This document shows, piece after piece, positions 20,701 to 53,155 of a stretch of DNA of 64,000 nt. Position 1 is the first letter of the stretch. Every line of letters starts with the position of its first letter. Origin of the DNA: Glaucostegus cemiculus. Taxonomy: Eukaryota. The notes below the pieces were generated by a model. The model was not told the DNA's origin and did no database searches. It was given only the letters and a program-made list of their open reading frames with translations. The position numbers and the translations under genes are program-made. Location: contig CDPCPM010000078.1 in assembly GCA_976551045.1 (NCBI GenBank), forward strand, positions 2,604,001 through 2,668,000. Reading direction: 5' to 3'.

Positions 20701-22004
20701 GTGACCTGATGACTGCCACAGGACTGTTTATGCCATATAAGTGGAAGGTGAATATGTCCTTATATTCTTGGTATGTAATTCCATGACTGGAAGAGTTCAG
20801 CCATTTCTGGAGCCATGTAAATGTCTCAGGATTAAATGTCTTACTGATCTACTATCTGTCCCAGGAGTTTTATCATTTAATAGCACATCAAAGACTTTCA
20901 TAGTTTCAGTCAGCACTGAAGCATCAGCCTGAGACATGCTGATGTCCACCTGGGGCAGACAATTATTTGCATCCTTACTAATAGATGACGGCTGATTGAT
21001 GATGATGTTGAAGTCTGCTGTCTATCAATGCTGTACATTTTCACTGTACACTCGCAGCAGTGTACAATTAGCACTCAGTATGGGAGATGTTCCTGATAAT
21101 TTATATTGCCCTCAGTGCATCATAGAAGATGTCATCCCTCTCTATATTGAACTGAATCTCATCTGCCTTGTTGCTCAGCTGTGAGCTTTGCACCTCTCGG
21201 AGTTTGCACTGGGCACTCTTCTTAATGTTGGAGTGATGTCGAGAAGCACCTTACGCGCAAAGGGAAGTGGGCATCGCATTATTTATTCATTTTCTGGATC
21301 AGACATCACTGGCAAGGCCAGCATTTATTGCCCATCCCTAATTGCCCTTGAGAAGATGGCAGTGCGTTGCTTTCTTGAACCACTGCAGCCCTTCTGGTGA
21401 AGGTGCTGCCACAGTGCTGTTGGGGAGGAAGTACCAGGATTTATACCCAGTGACGATGAAGGACCGGCAATATAGTTCCAAGTCAGGGCGATGTGTGACG
21501 CGATCTCCCCCTTAAAACTAAATGGCTTAAAAATTTCAAGGCTGTGATTGATCAGTTGTTGGCAGGAAAACAATGTGTTGTAGATTGAATGCAGATAAAT
21601 CAAGACAAAATATAGATCAATGACAATCTAACTGAATGATGGTAGAGGCTGACTTACTCCTCTTCATATGTTTTGGAATTTCTGACCAATTGTGCCGTAG
21701 TCCTACAGCTCCACTCCTCATGGCTTATCTCCCTGGCGCTGTTGTATGGTGCAGTGGGCTGGTTCCATGGTCAATGTCTTTTGGGTCAGCTCTGACTCCT
21801 TGACACACCATGCTGTAAAGTTCTGGGACATGGCTGACAACCACACACCTGGGTAGATTTTAAGGGAGATAAGCAGAGATGTTTTAAATGATCCAGGGAC
21901 CTGGTGGGATGGGCAAAACAGAGAGCAGGGCAATTTAGTTCTAACCCATCACCCATTCCTTCCTCTTCCCCATTCACAAAGGGTGGTAAAGAAAGCATAT
22001 GGCA

Positions 22005-23307
22005 TGCTTGCCTTTCACCTATTGCCGAAACAGGTCCACAGCAGACGCCGTCTCCCTGGCCCTACACTCAGCTCTGGAGCATCTGGACAGTAAAGACACG
22101 TACATTAGACTATTGTTTATTGACTACAGCTCTGCCTTCAATACAATAAACCCAAGCAAACTTGTTACCAAACTCCGAGACCTGGGACTCAACGCCTCCC
22201 TCCGTAACTGGATCCTTGACTTTCTAATCAACAGACCACAATCAGTGAAGATAGGCAGCAATACCTCCAGCATGATTATTCCCAGCACTGGTGCCCCACA
22301 AGGCGGCGTCCTCGGCCCTCTACTCTACTCCTTATATACTCATGACTGTGTGGCCAGAATCTGCTCTAACTCCATCTACAAGTTTGCAGATAATACCACC
22401 ATTGTAGGCCATATCTCAAACAGCGATGAGTCGGAGTACAGGAAGGAGATAGAGAGCTTAGTGGAATGGTGTCATGACAACAACCTTTCCCTCAGTGTCA
22501 ACAAAACAAAAGAACTGGTCATTGACTTCAGGAAAGGGGGTAGTGTAACATGTGCCTGTCTACATCAATGGTTCTGAGGTCAAGAGGGTTGAGAGCTTCA
22601 AGTTCCTGGGAGTGAACATCACCAACTACCTGTCCTGGTCAAATTATGTAGATACCATGGCCAAGAAAACTCCCCAGCGCCTCTGTTTCATCAGGAGGCT
22701 AAAGAAATTTGGTTTGACCCCTTTGATTCTCACCAACTTTTATCGATGCACCATAGAAAGCATCCTATCTGGATGTATCACAGCTTGATATGGCAACTGG
22801 TCTGCCCAGGACCACAAGAAACTGCAGAGAGCTGTGGACCCAGCCCAGCGAATCATGAACACCAGCCTCCCCTCCCTTGTCTCTGTCTTTACCTCCCGTT
22901 GTCTTGGTGAAGCAGCCAGCATAATCAAAGATCCCACCCACCTGGGTCATTCTCTCTTCTCTCCTCTTCCATCGGGTAGAAGATACAGGAGCCTGAGGGC
23001 ACATACCACCATACTTAAGGACAGCTTCTACCCCACTATGATAAGAGTATTGAACGGTTCCTGTAAACAATGATATGGACTATGACCTCATGATCTATCT
23101 TGTTGTGACCTTGCACCTTATTGCACTGCACTTTCTCTGTAGCTGTGACACTTTGTACTGTTATTGTTCTTACCTGTACTACCTCAATGCACTCTGTACT
23201 ACCCCAATGTTACTGCACTGTGTAATGAATTGATCTGTACGATCGGTATACTAAACAAGTTTTTCACTGTACCTCGATGCAAGTGACAATAATAAACCAA
23301 TACCAAT
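22005..23307 (+). mobile_element. 5'-truncated Rex/Babar LINE (RT to 3' tail), frameshifted
   Basis: [49 protein letters not shown]. Frameshift near 22540, in-frame stop near 22787, tail AATAAACCAATACCAAT. Confidence 0.92.
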
Positions 23308-32555: not shown

Positions 32556-33335
32556 CCAAGATGGCGGCACACACGGTTGCAGCGGCCTCTCCTGGGTCTG
32601 TAGTGCTTTGTGTTTTTTGTTAGTCTTTTAGTGTTTTTGTGCTGTTTTTTTGTTTTTTTTCTTGTGTTCTTTGTTATTGATGTTTGTGTGCTTGATGTTC
32701 GTTTTATGGGTTCATTGTTTGTGCTGACGGCACCGACAGCTCGTCAGAGCTCAAAGCGTGTCGAAGGGCCTGGAGCCTCGTGGTGGCCTCGGGCTGCGGG
32801 CGGTGAGGGGGCTGCCCGGGCTGGAGGTGGTCAGCCTGTGGGGCTGGAGGTGGTCGGCCTGGGGGGCCGGAGGTCATTGGACTGCGGGGCTGGAGGTGGT
32901 CGGCCTGGGGGACCGGAGGTGGTCAGACTGCGGGGACGGAGGTGGTCGGCCTGCGGGGCCGGAGGTGGTCGGACTGTGGGGCCAGAGGTGGTCGGCCTGC
33001 GGGGCCGGAGGTGGTCATCGGATCGGACTGCGGGGCCGGAGGTGGTTGTTGGATGTAGGCCCGGAGGTTGTAGGACTGCGGGGCTGAAGGTGGTCGTCGG
33101 TGCTGGGTGAGGCAAGGAGGTGCGGCGTGGCGGGAGGTGGGGGGAGATGTAATGTTGAGGTTCTGGGAGACGTGTTGTACCAGCAGACCGAAGTCCATGC
33201 GGTTCCAATGTTTTGATGTTTTTGTCCTGTTGTCTTTTATTGTCTTTTTGCACATTGGCCTGTGGAGTACGATATCTCGCCTTCATTATGCTGTGTGTGT
33301 GTGTGTACATGAAAGTGACAATAAACTGATTCTGA
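32556..33335 (+). mobile_element. Putative non-autonomous LINE-derived element (YY1-motif 5' end, minisatellite body, LINE-like tail)
   Basis: Starts CCAAGATGGCGGC; CpG-rich; ends GTGACAATAAACTGATTCTGA, resembling local Rex/Babar 3' ends (GTGACAATAATAAACC). No RT remnant seen. Confidence 0.5.
32812..33096. repeat. G-rich minisatellite, 23 bp unit, ~12 copies
   Basis: CTGCGGGGCCGGAGGTGGTCGG(A/C) repeats at 23 bp spacing (e.g. 32951, 32974, 32997). Confidence 0.9.
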
Positions 33336-33555
33336 ACAGACCTCCTGCAGAAGGATGAGGAATGGAATTGATTGAGGTAGAGACGACTCATCTCCACATT
33401 GATTGTGCTTAGAAGGGGAGTTTTGAGGGAGTAGGCATTGCAAGGGTTAAGTGGCCCCAAACTTTTCTCCAAAAATATTTTTCTACACAAGCGAGCAGCT
33501 TTGGAATGTTTCTTGCCACCTGACAGGTGCAGGATCCCGAATAGCCTTGGCATTA

Positions 33556-34359
33556 TGTTACGAAGTAGATTACGATGGGCAAATATCCCTTTAAGATGGG
33601 ACATTGTGTGTGTGTGTGCAACGTATTACGTCAACAGAAGATAAGACTAACGTGATGAGGTCATTACAAGAAAGAAAAAGAGAGGAGAGAGAGAGAGACA
33701 AACAGACGGAGAGAGAGAAGAAGGAGCGACGGCAGCCTATTTTGTTTCTGTCGATGGATGAAGGACAGTAACTGTGTTTGTCACTAAAATCCGTGGATGG
33801 ATTTCTGGAGTAGTCCAGTGGAGTTCACTTTTTCGGTAACCTGTAGAAGGACACAGGTGTTTGCGTGGACAACCACATTTTGGATGCTCTGCAGAGTGGC
33901 AAATAATGTGGAACAAGGTGATGGAATTCACTTGGCTGCTAACCTGTAGAAGAACACAGGTATTTGCATGGACAGTCACAATCCAGGAGTTTTTGGGGTG
34001 AGAAAGTCACTACCGAGTTAGCCCTGAAGTGTCGTTCGAGTTTTGAGTGGAACATTCGGATTTCGTGATTCCTCTCTAAGTTCTCTCTATATCTATGTTT
34101 TGTCTTCGGTGGACGGTGCTTGTGAAGAAGCCTTTATTCATGTTTCATCTTACGGCTTATTGAACTGAATTTTAAGAACTAATTCCTGGACTTTGAGTTT
34201 AAGAATTCGACACACACACACGACGAGTAGTTTTGGGGTTATAGTTTAAGATTCTAATATTTTGTTTTGTACTAATATACTAACTTTTTGTTCTTATTTT
34301 ACGTATTATTGGAAGTAGTTAATAATAATGTAGTTTTAACACTGAAAGAAAAAGTAACA
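33556..34359 (+). mobile_element. LTR, left arm of inverted LTR pair
   Basis: TGTTACG...GTAACA termini; followed after AAAT by a tRNA-Pro PBS; homologous to the solo LTR at 36592. Confidence 0.9.
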
Positions 34360-34363
34360 AAAT

Positions 34364-34398
34364 TGGGGGCTCGTCCGGGATTTGAACCTGGGACCTCT
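34364..34398 (+). promoter_or_regulatory. tRNA-Pro primer-binding site, extended to 35 nt
   Basis: TGGGGGCTCGTCCGGGAT is the canonical 18 nt tRNA-Pro PBS. It continues TTGAACCTGGGACCTCT, complementary to the tRNA-Pro T-arm and variable loop with one mismatch. Confidence 0.9.
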
Positions 34399-34404
34399 TT
34401 GCTG

Positions 34405-34425
34405 TGGGAGGTGGGAGGTGTTACG
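34405..34425 (+). promoter_or_regulatory. Polypurine-tract-like sequence followed by the first 7 nt of an LTR
   Basis: TGGGAGGTGGGAGG directly followed by TGTTACG, the LTR 5' terminus. Confidence 0.65.
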
Positions 34426-34429
34426 ATTT

Positions 34430-35231
34430 TGTTACGTTTTTTTTCAGTGTTAAAACTACATTATTAATAACTACTTCCAATAATACTTAAAATAAGAACA
34501 AAAAGTTAGTATATTAGTACAAAACAAAATATTAGAATCTTAAACTATAACCCCAAAAGTACTCGTTGTGTGTGTGTGTGTCGAATTCCTAAACTCAAAG
34601 TCCAGGAATTAGTTCTTAAAGTTCAGTTCAATAAGCCGTAAGATGAAACATGAATAAAGGCTTCTTCACAAGCACCGTCCACCGAAGACAAAACATAGAT
34701 ATAGAGAGAACTTAGAGAGGAATCACGAAATCCGAATGTTCCACTCAAAACTCGAACGACACTTCAGGGCTAACTCGGTAGTGACTTTCTCACCCCGAAA
34801 ACTCCTGGATCGTGACTGTCCATGCAAATACCTGTGTTCTTCTACAGGTTAGCAGCCAAGTGAATTCCATCACCTTGTTCCACATTATCTGCCACTCTGA
34901 AGAGCATCCAAAATGTGGTTGTCCACGCAAACACCTCTGTCCTTCTACAGGTTACCAACAAAGTGAACTCCACTGGACTACTCCAGAAATCCATCCACGG
35001 ATTTTAGTGACAAACACAGTTACTGTCCTTCATTCATCGACAGAAACAAAACAGGCTGCTGTCTCTCCTTCTTCTCTCTCTCCGTCTGTTTGTCTCTCTC
35101 TCTCCTCTCTTTTTCTTCCTTGTAATGACCTCATCACGTTAGTCTTATCTTCTGTTGACGTAATACGTTGCACACACACACAATGTCCCATCTTAAAGGG
35201 ATATTTGCCTATCGTAATCTACTAAGTAACA
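34430..35231 (-). mobile_element. LTR, right arm (inverted copy)
   Basis: Full-length reverse complement of 33556-34359 with scattered substitutions; followed by ATTA, matching the left flank. Confidence 0.9.
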
Positions 35232-36591
35232 ATTACAAAAATTGATTACTATTGCCAGAAGAAAGAGGAAAAGAGCAGGTCGAGACCTGATAATGTCTGT
35301 CATATTATCTCTTTCTGTACCTGTAAGAATACAGCAACTTTTTTCAGAATGCTGAAATGTATCCAGTGATAAATTGCTTTTGCTTCTTAATATAAGGCTT
35401 CTCAAGCTTGTAGCTTAACGTTAAGATTGCCAGTTTATTTTTATATCAATGTGGTTTAATTTCTCATCTGTTAAAATGAAGGAGGAGTATGTTAAAATCT
35501 AGCCTTCACTTGAAAGCAGAACCTCTTCATAATGATTCTGAATTGTGCTATCAACAACGGGGAACTGGAAAGGAAGTACAGACAAAAATAGCTTTTGCGA
35601 GGGATTAAAGGTAAATGAAAGGGACCCAAGGCTTTTTCTGACTACAGGACCATTTATGATTTGATGGTGTCTCCGCACTTCTAGATTCTTATGAGAATCT
35701 AAGAGTTTTGGATCATTCTTAGTGGAGAAAACTGATAGGTGTAGATGAATAGGTGGGAGAAAGTCTGGAAGTAGGTCATTCCTTTGATGCACGGTCTAAT
35801 GGGTACTATAGAAACAAAGGAATGCAGATGCTGGAATCTAGATGAGTACTATAAAATGTAAACTGCTGCTTATGAAGTCTCTCTTGGCCGAAGTAAACCA
35901 TAACAGTTACCATTGTGGATTTGACTTCAAATATTGAACAGACAGTCTTAACTAATTTCAAATGTGTTCCAGTGGTGAGGTTGGTCTACTAATGTTCTAT
36001 TTAATTAAGAAATGAATGAGTTAGGAATCAGTCTACTGTTGTCTATTTAATTGCAATAAATTGGAAAGGCATTGCTCGATTTGATTTCAATTTACCATGG
36101 GTGAATACCATGAAGATTAATCTATTGATATTATAATTAATATCTGTGAATGTGAGAAGATTGGTTTATTAGAATTCTATGTTATATAGATGAATTCCTG
36201 GTAATTGCTCTGCAGCTAATCTATTTCTACAAAGTAAACCAGGTACATAATGTTTTCTATTGATATTCTAATTACTTGGGTAAATGAAAAGGGATCTGGG
36301 CAATGATCCAGATTAGACTGAAAATTTGCAATTAACTTTCATGATATCCACAACCATTTCTAATATGAGAGAATATAACTACTTCTCTAATATTCACTAG
36401 CATTACCTTCATTGAGTCTCCCACTATTAACACCCAGTGGGTCACTGTTGACCAGACATTAAATGGGACCAGCCATATAAATTCCATGGACACAAGGGCA
36501 GCCCAGAGGCTGGTATTCTATAAAGAGTGAATCATCCTCTACCTTGTCAAATCTTTTTCACCATCCATGGGGCACACATTAGCGTTGTGTG

Positions 36592-36643
36592 TGTTACGAA
36601 CTGGGTTACTATTGGTGAATGTTCCTTTAAGATAGAGCATAGT

Positions 36644-36680
<37 letters not shown>

Positions 36681-37579
36681 CGTGGTTATAACAACAGAAG
36701 ATAAAGGACGTAATGATGTTTTTGGAGCAGACAGTCGTAGTCAGTCAGAGGAGGAGAGAGAGAGAAGAGAAAGAGGGAGAGAGACAGACAGCAGCCTGCT
36801 AATCTCTATCGATGGATGAAAAACAGTAACTGTGTCTGTCACTACAATCCATGTATGGATTTTTGGAGTAACCCTGTGGAGTCCACTTTGTTGTTAACCT
36901 GTAGAGGGAAACAGGTATTTTCGTGGACGGCCACATCTCAGATGCCTTTTGGGGCGGCAGATACTTCGGAACAAAGCAGTGGTGTTCACCTTGTCATTGA
37001 CTTGTAGAAGGAAACAGGTGTTTGTGTAGACGGTCACGATTTGAGTAGACACTGAGGTGTCGTTTGGGTTCCAGAGTGGAACATTCGAGAGCCTTTCAGG
37101 GTGAGGAAGATGCAGTGGAGTAGTCACTGCTGAGTAGACACTGAGGTGTCGTATGGGTTCCATTGTGGAACATTTGGATTTCATTATGTCTCTATTTTCT
37201 CTCTACGTTTTGTCCTCAGTCAACGGTGGTTGTTGAAGAAGCCTTTGATCATGTTTCACCTTATGACTTGTTGAGCTGAACTTTGAGAACTATTCCTGGA
37301 CTTGNNNNNNNNNNNNNNNNNNNNNNNNNNNNNNNNNNNNNNNNNNNNNNNNNNNNNNNNNNNNNNNNNNNNNNNNNNNNNNNNNNNNNNNNNNNNNNNN
37401 NNNNNNNNNNNNNNNNNNNNNNNNNNNNNNNNNNNNNNNNNNNNNTTAATGTTTAAGATTTAACATTTTTACTTCTAACATTCTAACATTTTTCTTATTA
37501 TCATAAGTAGTTATTAATAAAGTAGTTTTTGACACTGATGCATGACTCGGTTTGTTTCTTTTGTTGCTGGTTTGTAACA
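36592..37579 (+). mobile_element. Solo LTR related to the inverted pair, spanning an assembly gap
   Basis: TGTTACGAA...TGTAACA termini; shared blocks (CCTTTAAGAT, (TG)n, GTCGATGGATGAA-like, GAAGAAGCCTTT, ATTCCTGGACTT); AATAAA near the 3' end; flanks TGTG/TGTA; no PBS after it. Confidence 0.8.
37305..37445. other. Assembly gap (141 N)
   Basis: Run of N. Confidence 1.
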
Positions 37580-41189: not shown

Positions 41190-43300
41190 TTAGTAAATTG
41201 GTGAATTGGTTTATTATGTCCGAGGTACAGTGAAAAACTTGTTTTGCATGCCGTACATACCAGATAGACAGGGGTTCCAGGGGATTGAACTGAGTACAGT
41301 TGAGATTACTAGGGAGAAGGTGCTAAGGAAGCTAAGTGGATTAAAGACAGATAAGTCACCCGGACCGGATGAGGTGCACCCTCGGTTTCTGAAGGAGGTG
41401 GCTTTAGAGATTGTAGAGGCATTAGTGATTATTTTCCAGGAGTCAATGGACTCCGGCATGGTTCCGGAGGACTGGAGAGTAGCGAACGTAGTTCCACTGT
41501 ATAAGAAAGGTGGGAGGCAGCATAAAGGTAATTACAGACCAATTAGTTTGACGTCAGTAGTGGGAAAGATACTGGAATCGATCCTCAAGGATGAGGTTAC
41601 GGAATACCTGGTGATTCAAGACAGGATAGGTCCAAGCCAGCATGGTTTCGTAAAGGGAAGATCTTGCCTGACCAACCTATTGGAGTTTTTTGAGGAAATC
41701 TCAGGTAGGGTGGATAAGGGAGAGGCAGTGGACATTGTGTATTTAGACATTCAAAAGGCCTTCGACAAGGTGCTGCATCAGAGGTTGATTAATAAGATGA
41801 GTACGCATGGAATTACAGGAAGGATATTAAAATGGGTCGAGCATTGGCTGGTAGGCAGAAAGCAATGGGTAGGAATAAAAGGATCCTGTTCTGGATGGCG
41901 ACCGTTTACTAGTGGTGTCCCGCAAGGGTCGGTGTTGGGCCCGCTACTTTTCACTTTATATATTAATGATTTGGATGATGGAGTAAATGGTTTTGTAGCT
42001 AAGTCTGCGGATGAAACCAAGATTGGCGGTGGAGCAGGGAGTATAGCAGAGGCAGGAAGGTTGCAGAGAGACTTGGATAGTTTAGGTGAATGGGCAAAGA
42101 AATGGCAGATGAAATTCAATGTTGACAAATGTGCTGTAGTACACTTTGGCAAAAGAAATGAATGGGCAGATTATTATCTAGATGGGGAGGAAATTGGAAG
42201 TACGGAAGTACAAAGGGACTTGGGGGTACTCATGCAGGACACCCTAAAAGTCAACCACCAGGTTGGATCGGCGATAAAGAAAGCAAATGCTATGTTGGCG
42301 TTCATTTCGCGAGGTATAGTGTATAGAAGTAGGGAAGTGATGATGAGGCTCTATGGAGCACTGGTACGTCCTCATTTGGAATACTGTGTGCAGTTTTGGG
42401 CCCCACACCTTAGAAGGGATGTGCTGATCTTGGAGAGGGTTCAGAGGAGGTTTACAAGGATGAGTCCTGGTATGAAAGGGCTTACCTATGATGAGCATTT
42501 ATCGGCTCTTGGACTGTACTCATTGGAGTACAGAAGAATGAGGGGGGACCTCATAGAAGTGTTTAGAATGTTGAAAGGAATGGATAGAGTAGATGTGGAT
42601 AGGCTGTTTCCCATGGTGGGTGAGTCCAAGACTAGAGGGCACAGACTTAGAATCAGAGGGAACCAGTTTAAAACAGAGATGAGGAGAAATTACTTTAGTC
42701 AGAGGGTGGTGGAATTGTGGAATTCTCTGCCACATACAGCTGTAGAGGCTCAGTCAGTGGGGGCATTTAAAGGGGAGTTGGATAGGTACCTAATTAATCA
42801 AGGTATCAAGGATTATGGGGATAAGGCTGGAAATTGGGGATAGATATGTTATCTTTTCTCTTCTTCTCATGGAGCAGACTCGAAGGGCTGAATGGCCTAC
42901 TTCTGCTCCCTTGTCTTGTGATCTTGTGAGATCATTTCATTACAACAGTACAAGGGAAAATAATAACAGAATGCAGAATAAAGTGTTACAGTTACAGAGA
43001 AAGTAAAGTGCAGGTAGACAATGAAATGCAAGGCTATAATGAGGGAGAATGTGAGGTCAAAAATCCACATTACCATACTAGGGGACCGTTCAATACTCTT
43101 ATAACAGTGGGATAGAAGCTGTCCTTGAGCCTAGTCGTACATTCTTTTGGGCTTTTGTATGTCATGCCCGATGTGAGGCAGGAGAAGAGAGACTGTCTGT
43201 GGTGGGTGGGGTCTTTGATTATGTTGGCTGCTTTACTGAGCCTGCGAGAAGTGTGGACAAAGTCCAAGAAGGGAAGGCTGGTTTTTGTGATGTGGTGAAC
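41190..43300 (-). mobile_element. Rex/Babar 3' fragment split by the CR1 insertion
   Basis: 41190-41265 and 42929-43300 join into the element seen uninterrupted at 17110 and 49198; minus ORF KAANIIKDPTH...TTRLKDSFYP. Confidence 0.8.
41266..42928 (+). mobile_element. Young 5'-truncated CR1 LINE; ORF2 RT region open to the stop at 42843
   Basis: KSPGPDEVHP, NYRPISLTS, QHGF, YLDIQKAFDKV, GVPQGSVLGPLLF, KSADET, RPHLEYCVQFW; TCTTGTGA tail repeat; AGAT duplicated at 41262-41265 and 42929-42932. Confidence 0.95.
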
Positions 43301-49512: not shown

Positions 49513-51441
49513 CAGAGAAAATACCTTCTGAACCATGTCTGCACTTTAAAGGCCAAATGGGTACATTCCACCTGCTGATTAAACAACTGTCCAGCCCTGC
49601 AGGTATCTAAAGAATAAATAAAAATGTCTGTGTCTCATAGTGGAGGACAGGGTCACCATGAGTGGTGATTATAATGTAGTTACCACTGATGCATGAGTGT
49701 GGTTGAATCTGTTTTTCTGTTAAGGAATTATCTGATAATATTGAAATGTATTATTATGCGTTGGGTGAAACTTTTGGATTTTGGGTAATTTGAGATATGA
49801 TGTATGGCAAGTGAAACATACCCGTGAAGAACAGATGACTTGGGACCAATGGTTTTTGGAGCTTCTTCTGGGATTTTCCACCACCTTGTCAGGATCTGTT
49901 GTGGACTAATTTATTGAGGCTTATTTCTGTGATAAGTAACAGTTGTATTATTTTATCAGTCAATTACCATGAGAGTAGAAAGTGATATTGTTAGACCATC
50001 CTTTTCCTCCACTTTTTCTATGTTTACACTGATTTAAGTTCCAAATAAATGAGACTTTAGACCTTGAAAAATTATCCTGTCCTTTTTTTTCAATCTGTGG
50101 TTCATTCTGTACACTCACACAGAAATCAGAGTTTTCTGACAAGCCTCACATTTTGGGAAGAGGACATTGGGGGAAGTAGAGGACAGGATGCTGTAAATAC
50201 AGAACAGCTAGACACACTGCAACACCTTGCTAAAATGGAGAATAAATGTCAGGTATGTCATGTCACCAGGAAAACTCTATGAGTGTTTAAATGACCAAGA
50301 AAGACAACAAGACAACGGACACCAGAGAGATGAAGTTGTGTTCCCTGACAAAACTACAGTGCCAGTGAAAAAAATCAGTTACATCCCAAGAGATTCTATG
50401 TACTGTTCCAAATTCCAGTAAGTCACATTCCAATTCATGTACAGTACCAGTCTTATCCATGTCTTGTATAATTTGATCTGATTGGCAAAATTGCCCTCTA
50501 TAGATTTATCCTATGAATATTTTATATAAAGTCAGGATGTCTCAAAGCACTTTCCAGACAATTAAATACTTCTGAAGTGTAGTCTGTTGTGAACACTACA
50601 CTTGCACTGATATAAAATTTATTGGCTGTCAGTCTTGTCTCAGTGGTGGCTGTCTTGTCAGTTGTAAATTCATAGTTTCCACTCTGAGACTTGAACAGAG
50701 AAAGGAGGCCGACTAAGGGAGAACTGCAGGGTTGTCCCTGTTGTCTTTTGAATCAGATGATCTGAGGCACAACTAAGCCACACAAGTGGATGTAAACAAC
50801 CTCTGCCACTATTCAAGGAAGTTCGGAGGAGTCCTGGTGAATGCTTCTCTCTTAAATAGTGGTAATAAAACTGATTTTCTGCATTAACTCATTGGTGCTT
50901 GTAGGATGGTGAGTGATTGTGTCTCCTATAATACATTAGTGACTGGACTTCAAAAGTATTTCATTATCTATAAAGCCTTTGGGACCCCTAAAGGCAGGAA
51001 AGGTGACGTGTAAGTGCAGCTACTTTCCTGTTCCCTATGATCAGGTAAAGGCTGAATGGAGACAAGGGTGTTCTTAATTCCACAGAGTCGGTGAAAGGGC
51101 CATTTTATAGTGAAACAGTGGTCAGGGAGTCATTGAGACACACAGCACGGAAACATTAGCCTGTAGCAGCCAGCAGGGTGTGACTTAGAAAAACACGAGG
51201 ACACGGAGACTCGATCGAGCACGCTTTAATAACTCACCAGAAAAAACCGCGCGCATGCAGAACTACAAAAAACATGGCCGGCTGAAGTGACGTCATACTC
51301 CTGCTGGAAGTCCCGCCTTCTGGCGCTATCGCGAGGACTCGCGCATTTCCCCACGGCAGCCGACGGCGTTTCGGGCACCGGTAGCACGGGTCGTCACACG
51401 CACCCCCCCTCCCAGAAACGCCCATTGGAAGCGCGGGGCCA

Positions 51442-52325
51442 TCAACCTGATCGTCCAGCTTGGGTGGCCTGCCCTGTCGGCGCAGTGATGGCACTCTGAC
51501 CGGGTGCGCAATGTCCAGATGCGCCGGCTTCAGGCGGTCCACTGTGAAAGTCTGCCCACAACCCCCAACCTCTGACATATGTTGAACCACTGCGCCGGAC
51601 CACCCGGAAAGGCCCCTCGTATGGCTTCTGCAGGGGTGACCCATGTGCTCCCCTGCGGATGAAAATGTACTCACAGCCCTGGAGGTCCTTCGGAACGAAA
51701 GAAGGCATTGTGCCATGCCTGGAGGCCGGGATCGGTGCCAATGTCCCCACCTTGGCCCGCAGCTTCGCTAACACCTCCGCCGGGGTCCCCGCTGGGTCCT
51801 GAGCCCCTGGTACGAACTCACCCGGTACTGTGAGGGGGAAGCCGTAGACCAGCTCGGCTGAGGAGGCGCCCAAATCTTCCTTGGGGGTTGTACGGATGCC
51901 CAGCAGGACCCAGGAGAGCTCGTCTGTCCAGTTAGGTCCCTGCAGGCGAGCCATCAGGGCGGACTTGAGGTGCCGGTGGAAACGCTCCACCAAACCATTG
52001 GCCTGCAGGTGGTATGCTGTGGTGTGATGCAGCTGGGAACCCAGGAGCTGCGCCAGTGCCGTCCACAAGCCGGACGTGAACTGCGCCCCTCGGTTGGAGG
52101 TAATGTCCGTCGGGAGGCCAAACCAGGCAATCCAGTGGGCAATGAGGGCTCTGGCACAGGACGCAGTGGATGTGTCTGCCAGCGGCACTGCCTCTGGCCA
52201 CCTGGTGAACCAGTCTACCACAGTGAAAATGTACCTGGCGCCCCGGGACACTGGCAGCAGTCCGACAATGTCCATGTAAATGTGCTGGAACCTGCTGTGC
52301 GTTGGTTGAAAATGCTGGAGGGGTG
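51442..52325 (-). pseudogene. Gypsy integrase core and GPY/F region, defective
   Basis: MDIVG...FTRWPEAVP...ITSNRGAQFTS...NGLVERFHR...PYEGPF. The second catalytic Asp appears as Asn, the HHCC domain is missing, and the C-terminus is frameshifted (VDRLKPAH in another frame). Confidence 0.88.
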
Positions 52326-52427
52326 AAGGACGCTGATTTCGGCCCCCGTATCCACCAGGAAACGCCGCCCAGTGAGCCGGTCCCAAAGGAAGAGTAGGTT
52401 GTCTCGCTGGCCGGCCGTCGAAGCCAC
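52326..52427 (-). pseudogene. Gypsy aspartic protease N-terminal stub
   Basis: LFLWDRLTGRRFLVDTGAEISVL (DTGA active site), truncated by the deletion. Confidence 0.85.
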
Positions 52428-52454
52428 TAACGACGGCCGGCCTCAGCGTTTCCC
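52409..52454 (-). promoter_or_regulatory. -1 programmed ribosomal frameshift signal (gag-pol)
   Basis: Slippery heptamer G GGA AAC in gag phase, 5 nt spacer, perfect 12 bp stem GGCCGGCCGTCG/CGACGGCCGGCC with a 10 nt loop; protease is in the -1 frame. Confidence 0.8.
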
Positions 52455-53119
52455 GGGAAGGAACACGGTGGCTGGCAGCAGCGCACATTCGTCCCCCACC
52501 TCTTGTGGTAGAAACACCACTGCTCTGGGCCCTTGTCTTTGTCCGCTGTGGGCCCTGACAGTTTGGGTTTCGGAACCTTAGCCTGAGGCTGTGAGGCCGC
52601 CGCTACACAGGCGGAGGCCACTCCTTGCCGCCGACTGTACCAAATGACGTCCGCTATGGCCACGAGGGCGCGCGGGTCGCTGAAATCTCTGCCGGCGAGG
52701 AGGGAGCGCATATCGTCCGGGAGTTGCTTGAGGGATAGCTGCCGGAACAGGAAACATGGCTGATGGCCATCCATGAGTGCTAGCATCTCGTCCATCAATT
52801 CGGAGGGCTTGCGGTCGCCTAGGCCGTCCATATGGAGGAGCCTCGTGGCTTGGTCACTGAGGGAAAGGCTGAACGTGCGGATGAGGAGAGCCTTGATTTG
52901 GACGTACCTGTCCTCCATCGGTGGCTGGCATAGGAAATCGATGATGCGACCGGCTGTGTCCTGGTCGAGGGCACTGACCACGTAGTAATGCTTCGTGGCG
53001 TCGACTTCGATGCCCCTGACGCTGAACTGGGCCTCCGCTTGTTCAAACCAGACTTGAGGCTGTGAGGTCCAGAAAACCGGGAGCTTGAGTGCAACGGCGT
53101 TGTGGGAGTCAGTATTCAT
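52427..53119 (-). CDS. gag: Gypsy Gag, uninterrupted 230 aa ORF
   Basis: KLPVFWTSQPQVWFEQAEAQF N-terminal motif; C-terminal C-x2-H-x9-C-x3-C (CHCC) knuckle; ATG just downstream of the PBS. Confidence 0.88.
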   Translation of the reverse strand: MNTDSHNAVALKLPVFWTSQPQVWFEQAEAQFSVRGIEVDATKHYYVVSALDQDTAGRIIDFLCQPPMEDRYVQIKALLIRTFSLSLSDQATRLLHMDGLGDRKPSELMDEMLALMDGHQPCFLFRQLSLKQLPDDMRSLLAGRDFSDPRALVAIADVIWYSRRQGVASACVAAASQPQAKVPKPKLSGPTADKDKGPEQWCFYHKRWGTNVRCCQPPCSFPGNAEAGRR

Positions 53120-53141
53120 GATTCCAGATGCCGTCTGGAAT

Positions 53142-53155
53142 CGTCGGGGTCACCA
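53142..53155 (-). promoter_or_regulatory. tRNA-Trp primer-binding site
   Basis: TGGTGACCCCGACG, 2 nt after the LTR-terminal CA. Confidence 0.85.

Follow-up and report, generated by a model that had tools for sequence, protein, structure and literature searches.

Recurrent insertion of inverted LTR pairs through two U3 ends in a vertebrate Gypsy family

LTR retrotransposons are generally assumed to use one U3 end and one U5 end when they integrate. Several side products of their replication are already known, namely those of polypurine tract (PPT) recycling, the Ty1 composites formed at intermediates that end at the primer-binding site (PBS), and one-ended integration. According to the part of the source available to us, in Ty3 and Ty1 the PPT primes repeatedly, the first plus strand reading into the tRNA and the second stopping at U5 once the primer has been removed (PMC5371799). 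PBS-ended dead-end intermediates of Ty1 can join foreign DNA (PMC2939329, in the sections consulted). Within Metaviridae, an integrase placed before reverse transcriptase (RT) and RNase H defines rGmr1 in the accessible part of PMC3601003.

In this work we describe an inverted pair of LTRs in a 64-kb stretch of Glaucostegus cemiculus DNA, which we call the window. Insertions of this class have arisen repeatedly and independently in this genome, and the joint of the present one can be compared piece by piece with the intermediates of the systems mentioned above.

Structure of the locus and its parent family

Re-analysis confirmed that two tail-to-tail Gypsy LTRs, which we assign to the Gmr1 type, form a real single insertion at 33552-35235. 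Its features are the following:

33552-33555, unstranded: left target-site duplication ATTA, with the 4 bp that are usual in the family
33556-34359, plus strand: left arm, a whole LTR (U3-R-U5) with its U3 end outward, 96-97% identical to family LTRs
34345-34353, plus strand: A-run in the left arm, in place of about 34 nt of U5 (from a comparison of U5 lengths and a genome-wide pattern)
34360-34363, plus strand: AAAT, the unprocessed U5 end that separates the LTR from the PBS, also present after the 5' LTRs of full-length copies
34364-34398, plus strand: copy of the tRNA-Pro primer, comprising the 18-nt PBS (34364-34381) and about 17 nt past the normal stop
34399-34418, plus strand: PPT-like tract, which is the family PPT region with a 7-nt slip duplication, by comparison with the PPT sides of full-length copies
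34419-34425, plus strand: TGTTACG, the first 7 nt of U3 and the stop of the left strand
34426-34429, minus strand: ATTT, the AAAT spacer of the right arm, which is exactly where minus-strand DNA begins once its primer has been removed
34430-35231, minus strand: right arm, a whole inverted LTR with its U3 end outward and no primer tail
34437-34444, minus strand: A-run U5 of the right arm, the same as in the left arm
35232-35235, unstranded: right target-site duplication ATTA

This layout had been proposed in an earlier note made from the letters alone, and all of its coordinates hold on re-check. The arms measure 804 bp (left) and 802 bp (right), with 70 bp between them, and 777 of the 806 columns of their alignment are identical; there are 23 substitutions (13 transitions and 10 transversions) and 6 gap columns, every one in microsatellites. 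These scattered differences, together with a private U5 variant on both arms, bear out the note's argument against a mirrored-read artefact. The ATTA duplication encloses both arms, no duplication lies between them, and the middle consists of element-derived and tRNA-derived sequence, with no host DNA. The earlier proposal of a single integration through two U3 ends is sustained by the exact ends and the single ATTA duplication, and by the recurrence of the layout at 44 loci, which is presented below. The element had also been described as free of coding sequence, and in fact the only ORF longer than 110 aa inside it has no Pfam match.

In short-read Logan contigs (3 of 8 runs) compared with the right arm and its flank, the family is fragmented, and none of the pieces extends across the joint or across the right target site. 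A search of Rfam around the site gave sub-threshold matches only, and the folding of the last 134 nt of the left arm was unremarkable (z 0.45). No empty site was found among the fetched loci, where the sequence of the left flank occurs elsewhere as a repeat and that of the right flank has no match. By itself, the window locus has no evident function. Its neighbourhood includes a 23-bp minisatellite with an adjoining repeat (32795-33340), the latter recurring at three other loci (L104, L065 and L119), sometimes within LTRs of the Gmr1-type family. An older solo LTR of a sister subfamily lies at 36592-37579, 67% identical to the arm over 575 bp and with its GT-rich U5 intact; a run of N (37305-37445) falls inside it. 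A remnant of another LTR element, with DUF7041 and integrase core ORFs, is located on the minus strand at about 51400-53150, and RT ORFs at 41197-42840 and 21990-22574 probably belong to LINEs.

The assignment of the arms to a Gmr1-type Gypsy retrotransposon is based on the order of the pol domains in Pfam. One ORF of the family (L067) contains SCAN (261-349), CCHC (395-410), Integrase_H2C2 (715-771), RT (936-1093) and RNase H (1157-1269), and a second one (L064) has the same order, with the integrase upstream of RT and RNase H; the integrase core is absent from the Pfam matches of the family ORF. Full-length copies of about 5-7 kb have an 835-bp LTR, AAAT, the 18-nt PBS, a PPT and a 4-bp duplication. 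Both full-length and solo copies have TG...CA ends, direct LTRs and duplications of 4 bp, sometimes 5 bp. The window arm gave at least 6,735 candidate matches in the 2.85 Gb genome, and exact motif counts of 9,978 for the U5 end and 11,565 for the U3 start, with patterns that each drop matches having one base at the last position, correspond to about 10,000 or more LTR copies. The local density of the family is about 100 LTR ends in 9 Mb.

The note had identified a tRNA-Pro PBS in the joint. The 18-nt PBS is indeed present, and the match to the tRNA goes further than proposed: downstream of AAAT, agreement with the normal leader ends after 18 nt, while agreement with the tRNA continues for 35-36 nt. 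The 32 nt after the CCA complement match at 29-32 of 32 positions at six genomic loci with the tRNA-Pro motif, of which ARAGORN calls four as tRNA-Pro, one as Gln and one as undetermined. Since the tRNA genes that were checked lack the CCA that the tail complements, it was presumably the mature primer that was copied. The tail is followed by the family PPT, which carries the 7-nt slip, and by 7 nt of U3, after which the minus strand begins at its exact first base. At another locus (L002) the same path from tail to PPT to U3 is followed, with 11 nt of U3, and its LTR is 8.4% apart from that of the window. Most 5' LTRs of the family pass straight from the PBS to the leader; some direct elements (L003, L072) have inherited a long tRNA tail. 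Long tRNA-Pro copies, of up to 68 nt, are seen on LTRs at L003/L071 (a short direct element), L008, L072, L013 and L210, some of them in direct elements. The anticodon of the L210 copy reads GGG, as would be expected from inosine copied as G.

The second peculiarity of the window is its U5. In 132 of 142 distinct LTR ends compared, 42 nt follow an anchor motif, vs 14 nt in the two window arms. The A-run, which replaces about 34 nt of GT-rich U5, starts 15 nt downstream of the place where the family has AATAAA. A genome-wide pattern for it retrieved both window arms and one different event, the window form being private to its arms; an A-run at the same R end is found in two other joints (C278 and C314). 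We think that this U5 would have arisen when the minus strand switched prematurely to the poly(A) tail. Since the variant is shared and private, both arms would descend from one minus strand, that is, from one reverse-transcription event, with later conversion between the arms as another conceivable source.

Recurrence of the inverted class and anatomy of its joints

The complete set of fetched loci includes 62 distinct ones in which two U3 ends, each flanked by host DNA, face one another. Their flanks form an exact 4-bp duplication at 44 loci, a 5-bp one at 2, a duplication with one mismatch at 5 and none at 11, where taking the best pair per locus slightly inflates the matches and the choice of most loci by joint or end patterns biases the proportions of the classes. 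An exact 4-mer match between flanks is expected by chance in about 0.5% of pairs; one of the 44 loci (L078) is probably such a match beside a normal solo LTR. The 44 exact duplications comprise 38 different 4-mers, and the joints are varied. Five of the 11 loci without duplication are neighbouring separate elements; two others, L229 and L231, lack a duplication even though both of their arms are whole and their joint is typical.

The frequency of the class was estimated from an unselected survey of host-flanked exact U3 starts among the first 100 matches on one contig (C1). Its 55 rows comprised 22 long canonical copies, 15 solo LTRs, 11 ends without a partner and 7 inverted ends. After subtraction of 3 partner ends and 1 misfiled PPT end, this vertebrate Gypsy family had used two U3 ends in 4 of 51 insertions. 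The interval for the inverted share, calculated on uncorrected ends, is 2.7-13.9%; because each such event offers two ends, the true figure probably lies closer to 4-5%, and its interval is wide. This would correspond to some hundreds of inverted U3-U3 insertions genome-wide. Moreover, 346 U5 ends keep AAAT followed by a base other than T, and the first 30 of them fetched included nine distinct duplication-flanked inversions.

These counts bear on the origin that the note had left between a one-off accident and a family of palindromic mini-elements. The accident is contradicted by the recurrence of the layout, with exact duplication, at 44 distinct loci. As for the family, LTRs of loci with the same joint are a median of 5.3% apart, vs 5.9% for random family members; same-joint loci are not close to each other and therefore the palindromes are not copying themselves. 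The note had also postulated a coding-free parent with LTR, PBS and PPT. A genome-wide pattern of U5 end, 25-55 nt, PPT and U3 start gave 2 sites (the window and L002), both inverted and with different joints, so that this 25-55 nt spacer pattern uncovered no direct-repeat copy of such a parent. One inverted insertion is present on four contigs with the same flanks (L193, L194, L201 and L227), which are duplicated host segments or haplotypes. A 44-nt joint found at six sites was rejected as six recurrences, given that four of the sites share flanks and represent one event copied with host DNA; of the other two sites, one is independent and one ambiguous.

The tail-to-tail pattern occurs at 18 sites with 0-30 nt between the ends (control 6) and at 41 sites with 31-60 nt (control 4). 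The head-to-head pattern, with U5 ends outward, gave 0 sites genome-wide, being stricter (26 fixed letters vs 20). In the 30 joint loci that were fetched, a primer tail is present on one side only in 22, on both sides in 0 and absent in 8. An exact 18-nt tail is joined bluntly to an exact U5 end at six sites, and a 2-nt overlap between the two is found at four sites, two of which are one duplicated locus. The 32 duplication-flanked events divide into 13 with a tailed arm and an arm ending at AAAT plus 0-2 nt, 17 with one arm cut inside the LTR and 2 of other kinds, and the tailed partners vary in length, the longest being nearly complete elements (L134, L156, L165 and L065). Read-through tails in 29 copies range from 24 to 68 nt, mostly 33-45, in a sample biased by the query. 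G37 of tRNA-Pro corresponds to step 40, and three joints end at 39; we take this base to be m1G37, and tails that end at 39 would fit a stop there.

Filler in the joints is also informative. An A-run is present in 3 of 22 joints, and at L200, with tRNA-type tails on both sides, the filler agrees with the 3' end of a tRNA-Gln at 14 of 15 nt. Short templated repeats are seen in the joints of L010 and L027. Tails resembling tRNAs other than proline occur at U5 ends of L200 (Gln by comparison), L233, L234, L235 and L018. L234 combines two whole arms with a 4-bp duplication. ARAGORN called no tRNA in the tails of L233, L234 and L235; L233 and L018 look similar to L200 in having a putative second tRNA-type tail. 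Seven loci (L079, L080, L088, L089, L090, L195 and L199) have the same tail-to-tail joint with one LTR arm and a short U5 stub as the other, which points to incomplete extension or later loss of one arm.

The arms of inverted pairs behave like the two LTRs of one element. Their median divergence is 1.8%, vs 1.5% for canonical 5'/3' LTR pairs and about 5-6% for other copies. The partner is the nearest copy for both arms in 22 of 28 inverted pairs and in 19 of 28 canonical ones, and private variants are shared by the two members in 10 of 15 inverted pairs, compared with 11 of 22 canonical ones and 0 of 60 pairs taken at random. Four inverted pairs (L026, L081, L110 and L165) have zero differences, which may reflect youth, conversion or assembly polishing, the latter two being able to homogenise arms. 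Identity between arms would be expected from a single minus strand as well as from two cDNAs copied from the same source element.

Origin of the U3-U3 insertions

We think it probable, although well short of certain, that two plus-strand intermediates were joined 3' end to 3' end by the RT of the element, and that the resulting U3-U3 palindrome was then integrated. The evidence for this mechanism consists of integrated copies, from which we infer the intermediates; for the parent, the family, the PBS, the PPT and the 4-bp duplication are established. In the window, the minus strand primed by tRNA-Pro would have jumped early onto the poly(A) tail, giving the A-run U5 in both arms. The first plus strand (left arm) would have copied the LTR and about 35 nt of primer, as in the PPT recycling of Ty1/Ty3, and may then have used 3 nt of microhomology to jump to a point immediately upstream of the PPT, from which it copied 7 nt of U3 before stalling. 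The second plus strand (right arm), synthesised after primer removal, would end at AAAT. The earlier note had already remarked that the inverted arm starts at the first bases of minus-strand DNA, and the same end is found in many other joints. The two 3' ends would have paired over 0-2 nt, been joined and served as templates for each other, yielding a linear palindrome that is bounded by two U3 ends, and the exact ends and the duplication suggest that integrase inserted both in concert. The product has no correctly oriented 3' U3-R and is likely a dead end.

If two plus strands were extended on each other from their 3' ends, the polarity of the insertions, their asymmetry and their exact duplication are all explained. 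LTR-only arms running exactly from the U3 start to AAAT fit PPT-primed strands and not trimmed full-length cDNA, and the filler made of A-runs and tRNA-Gln points to reverse transcriptase. In the lopsided joints, the arm with the primer copy and the arm that stops at the unprocessed U5 end match, respectively, the first and the second of the plus-strand strong-stop DNAs in the Ty1/Ty3 model. Presumably, an LTR-only piece gains an integrable U3 end only when a plus strand started at the PPT border is copied to its end; mutual extension would achieve this at the two ends simultaneously. Against the joining of plus strands by RT, the arm cut inside the LTR in 17 of 32 events also fits host resection and end-joining, and the latter would fit the templated repeats of L010 and L027 as well.

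Host end-joining is central to the main rival account, which is possible but rather doubtful in our opinion: one integrase complex would take the U3 ends of two double-stranded DNAs, separate molecules from the same particle or cell, and the host would seal the inner ends. The exact duplication is accounted for equally well, and truncated arms, partners of all lengths, templated filler and the tRNA-type tails on both sides of L200 find a place in it too. However, such donors would have to be LTR-only, end exactly at AAAT and have a finished U3 end, and normal cDNA supplies none. Pairs with U5 outward are also predicted and none was found with the stricter head-to-head pattern, while the RNA-like filler suggests reverse transcriptase and the private A-run is on both window arms. 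Apart from the duplication and the truncated arms, two donors fit the observations less well than joined plus strands do.

The remaining accounts seem improbable to different degrees. Insertion of one U3 end followed by extension of the free end on its own LTR by a host polymerase, or an inversion or conversion after insertion, is in our view very unlikely. One-ended integration has been proposed for HIV/ASLV, including joins to viral DNA in either orientation (available part of PMC5041404), and unprocessed AAAT ends inserted in this way occur in the family. At L155, L158, L177 and L178, the right end of LTRs or full elements, with AAAT retained, is joined to host DNA without the normal duplication, and these are likely one-ended integrations. 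The route thus explains the AAAT-to-host ends of the family, not two exact U3 ends: it gives host deletions or duplications of variable size, and for the inverted class it is largely refuted by the second exact U3 end and 4-bp duplication at 44 loci. We give very little credit to a family of palindromic mini-elements that copies itself or derives from a TRIM-like LTR-PBS-PPT parent. Identical 18-nt joints at six sites, the 44-nt joint at six sites, the layout shared with L002 and the short direct element with a tRNA tail (L003/L071) speak for it. Nevertheless, same-joint loci carry unrelated LTR variants, four of the six 44-nt sites are one duplicated event, the genome-wide pattern found no direct mini-element with a 25-55 nt spacer, the A-run U5 of the window has no sibling, and no unrelated sites among the fetched loci share both joint and LTR variants. 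Two independent side-by-side insertions, or an assembly artefact, are hardly credible. The density of the family and the lack of a spanning read among the short-read contigs leave them some room, but a single duplication surrounds both arms with none between, the middle is not host DNA, and the arms combine 23 scattered differences with a shared private U5 variant; besides, double insertions retain the target motif in the joint (PMC5932611, in the part available). A double insertion, DIRS and a TRIM parent are all rejected as readings of the window element.

The joints preserve both plus-strand species of the yeast PPT-recycling model, which makes this model testable from animal genome sequence. 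In addition, each event leaves a long, near-perfect inverted LTR repeat that, if transcribed, would form hairpin RNA and could trigger silencing. More tentatively, and with more doubt than belief, we suggest that the joining of recycled plus-strand by-products into U3-U3 palindromes might be a regular side route of Gypsy elements. In many genomes it could account for a few percent of all insertions, overlooked so far since programs that detect LTR elements require direct repeats, and it might record PPT recycling and the modification stops of primer tRNAs and seed long-hairpin loci that silence the source family.

Comparison with known systems

The parent resembles Gmr1 (rGmr1) in the integrase before RT/RNase H, the TG...CA inverted ends and the AATAAA followed by a GT-rich U5, whereas the window element is a coding-free derivative with inverted LTRs (PMC3601003, in part). 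TRIMs and tandem LTR elements are also coding-free or multi-LTR units, some of them inserted once, but their LTRs are direct and the accessible part of PMC11899658 describes no joint between a primer tail and a U5 end. The window element has a PBS and a PPT without coding sequence, its LTRs are not direct, and 2 sites share its layout in place of many copies at unrelated sites. DIRS elements are not known to leave an integrase-type duplication. They are retroelements with inverted terminal repeats as well, although they use a tyrosine recombinase, unlike the window's parent with its zinc-binding integrase domain and 4-bp duplication (PMC3950715, in part); neither the recombinase nor the lack of such a duplication is seen in the family studied here. 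Inverted tandems formed by double insertion do exist, but the inverted Rover pair has a target-like motif in the joint, and no primer-tail/U5-end joint is described in the part of PMC5932611 consulted.

One-ended integration of HIV/ASLV shares with this Gypsy family an unprocessed free end joined to viral or host DNA; it leaves one integrase-made end and rearranged flanks, while the window has two exact U3 ends and a normal duplication (PMC5041404, in part). Neither an inexact second end nor a variable change of the flanks is seen in the window. In Ty1 composites, a PBS-ended intermediate is joined to other DNA and template switching or erroneous priming is blamed; unlike our case they are experimental and the partner is transformed DNA, not a second LTR, with no U3-U3 palindrome described in the sections available (PMC2939329).

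Our search of the full-text literature, in which subscription journals and supplementary junction tables are poorly covered, found no report of recurrent U3-U3 inverted LTR insertions, and the consulted parts of PMC7197481, PMC11624286, PMC9278108, PMC12789967, PMC10924933 and bioRxiv 2022.12.06.519325 hold no such case. Relative to the literature searched, this recurrent class would be new, and for its mechanism Ty1/Ty3 PPT recycling would be the model. Both systems have a first strand that reads the tRNA and a second one that ends at U5, displaced as by-products, which in yeast particles are dead-end or transfer intermediates (PMC5371799, in part). The two plus-strand species are present here as integrated arms, joined tail to tail in a vertebrate genome, and with a tail that often runs well past the PBS.
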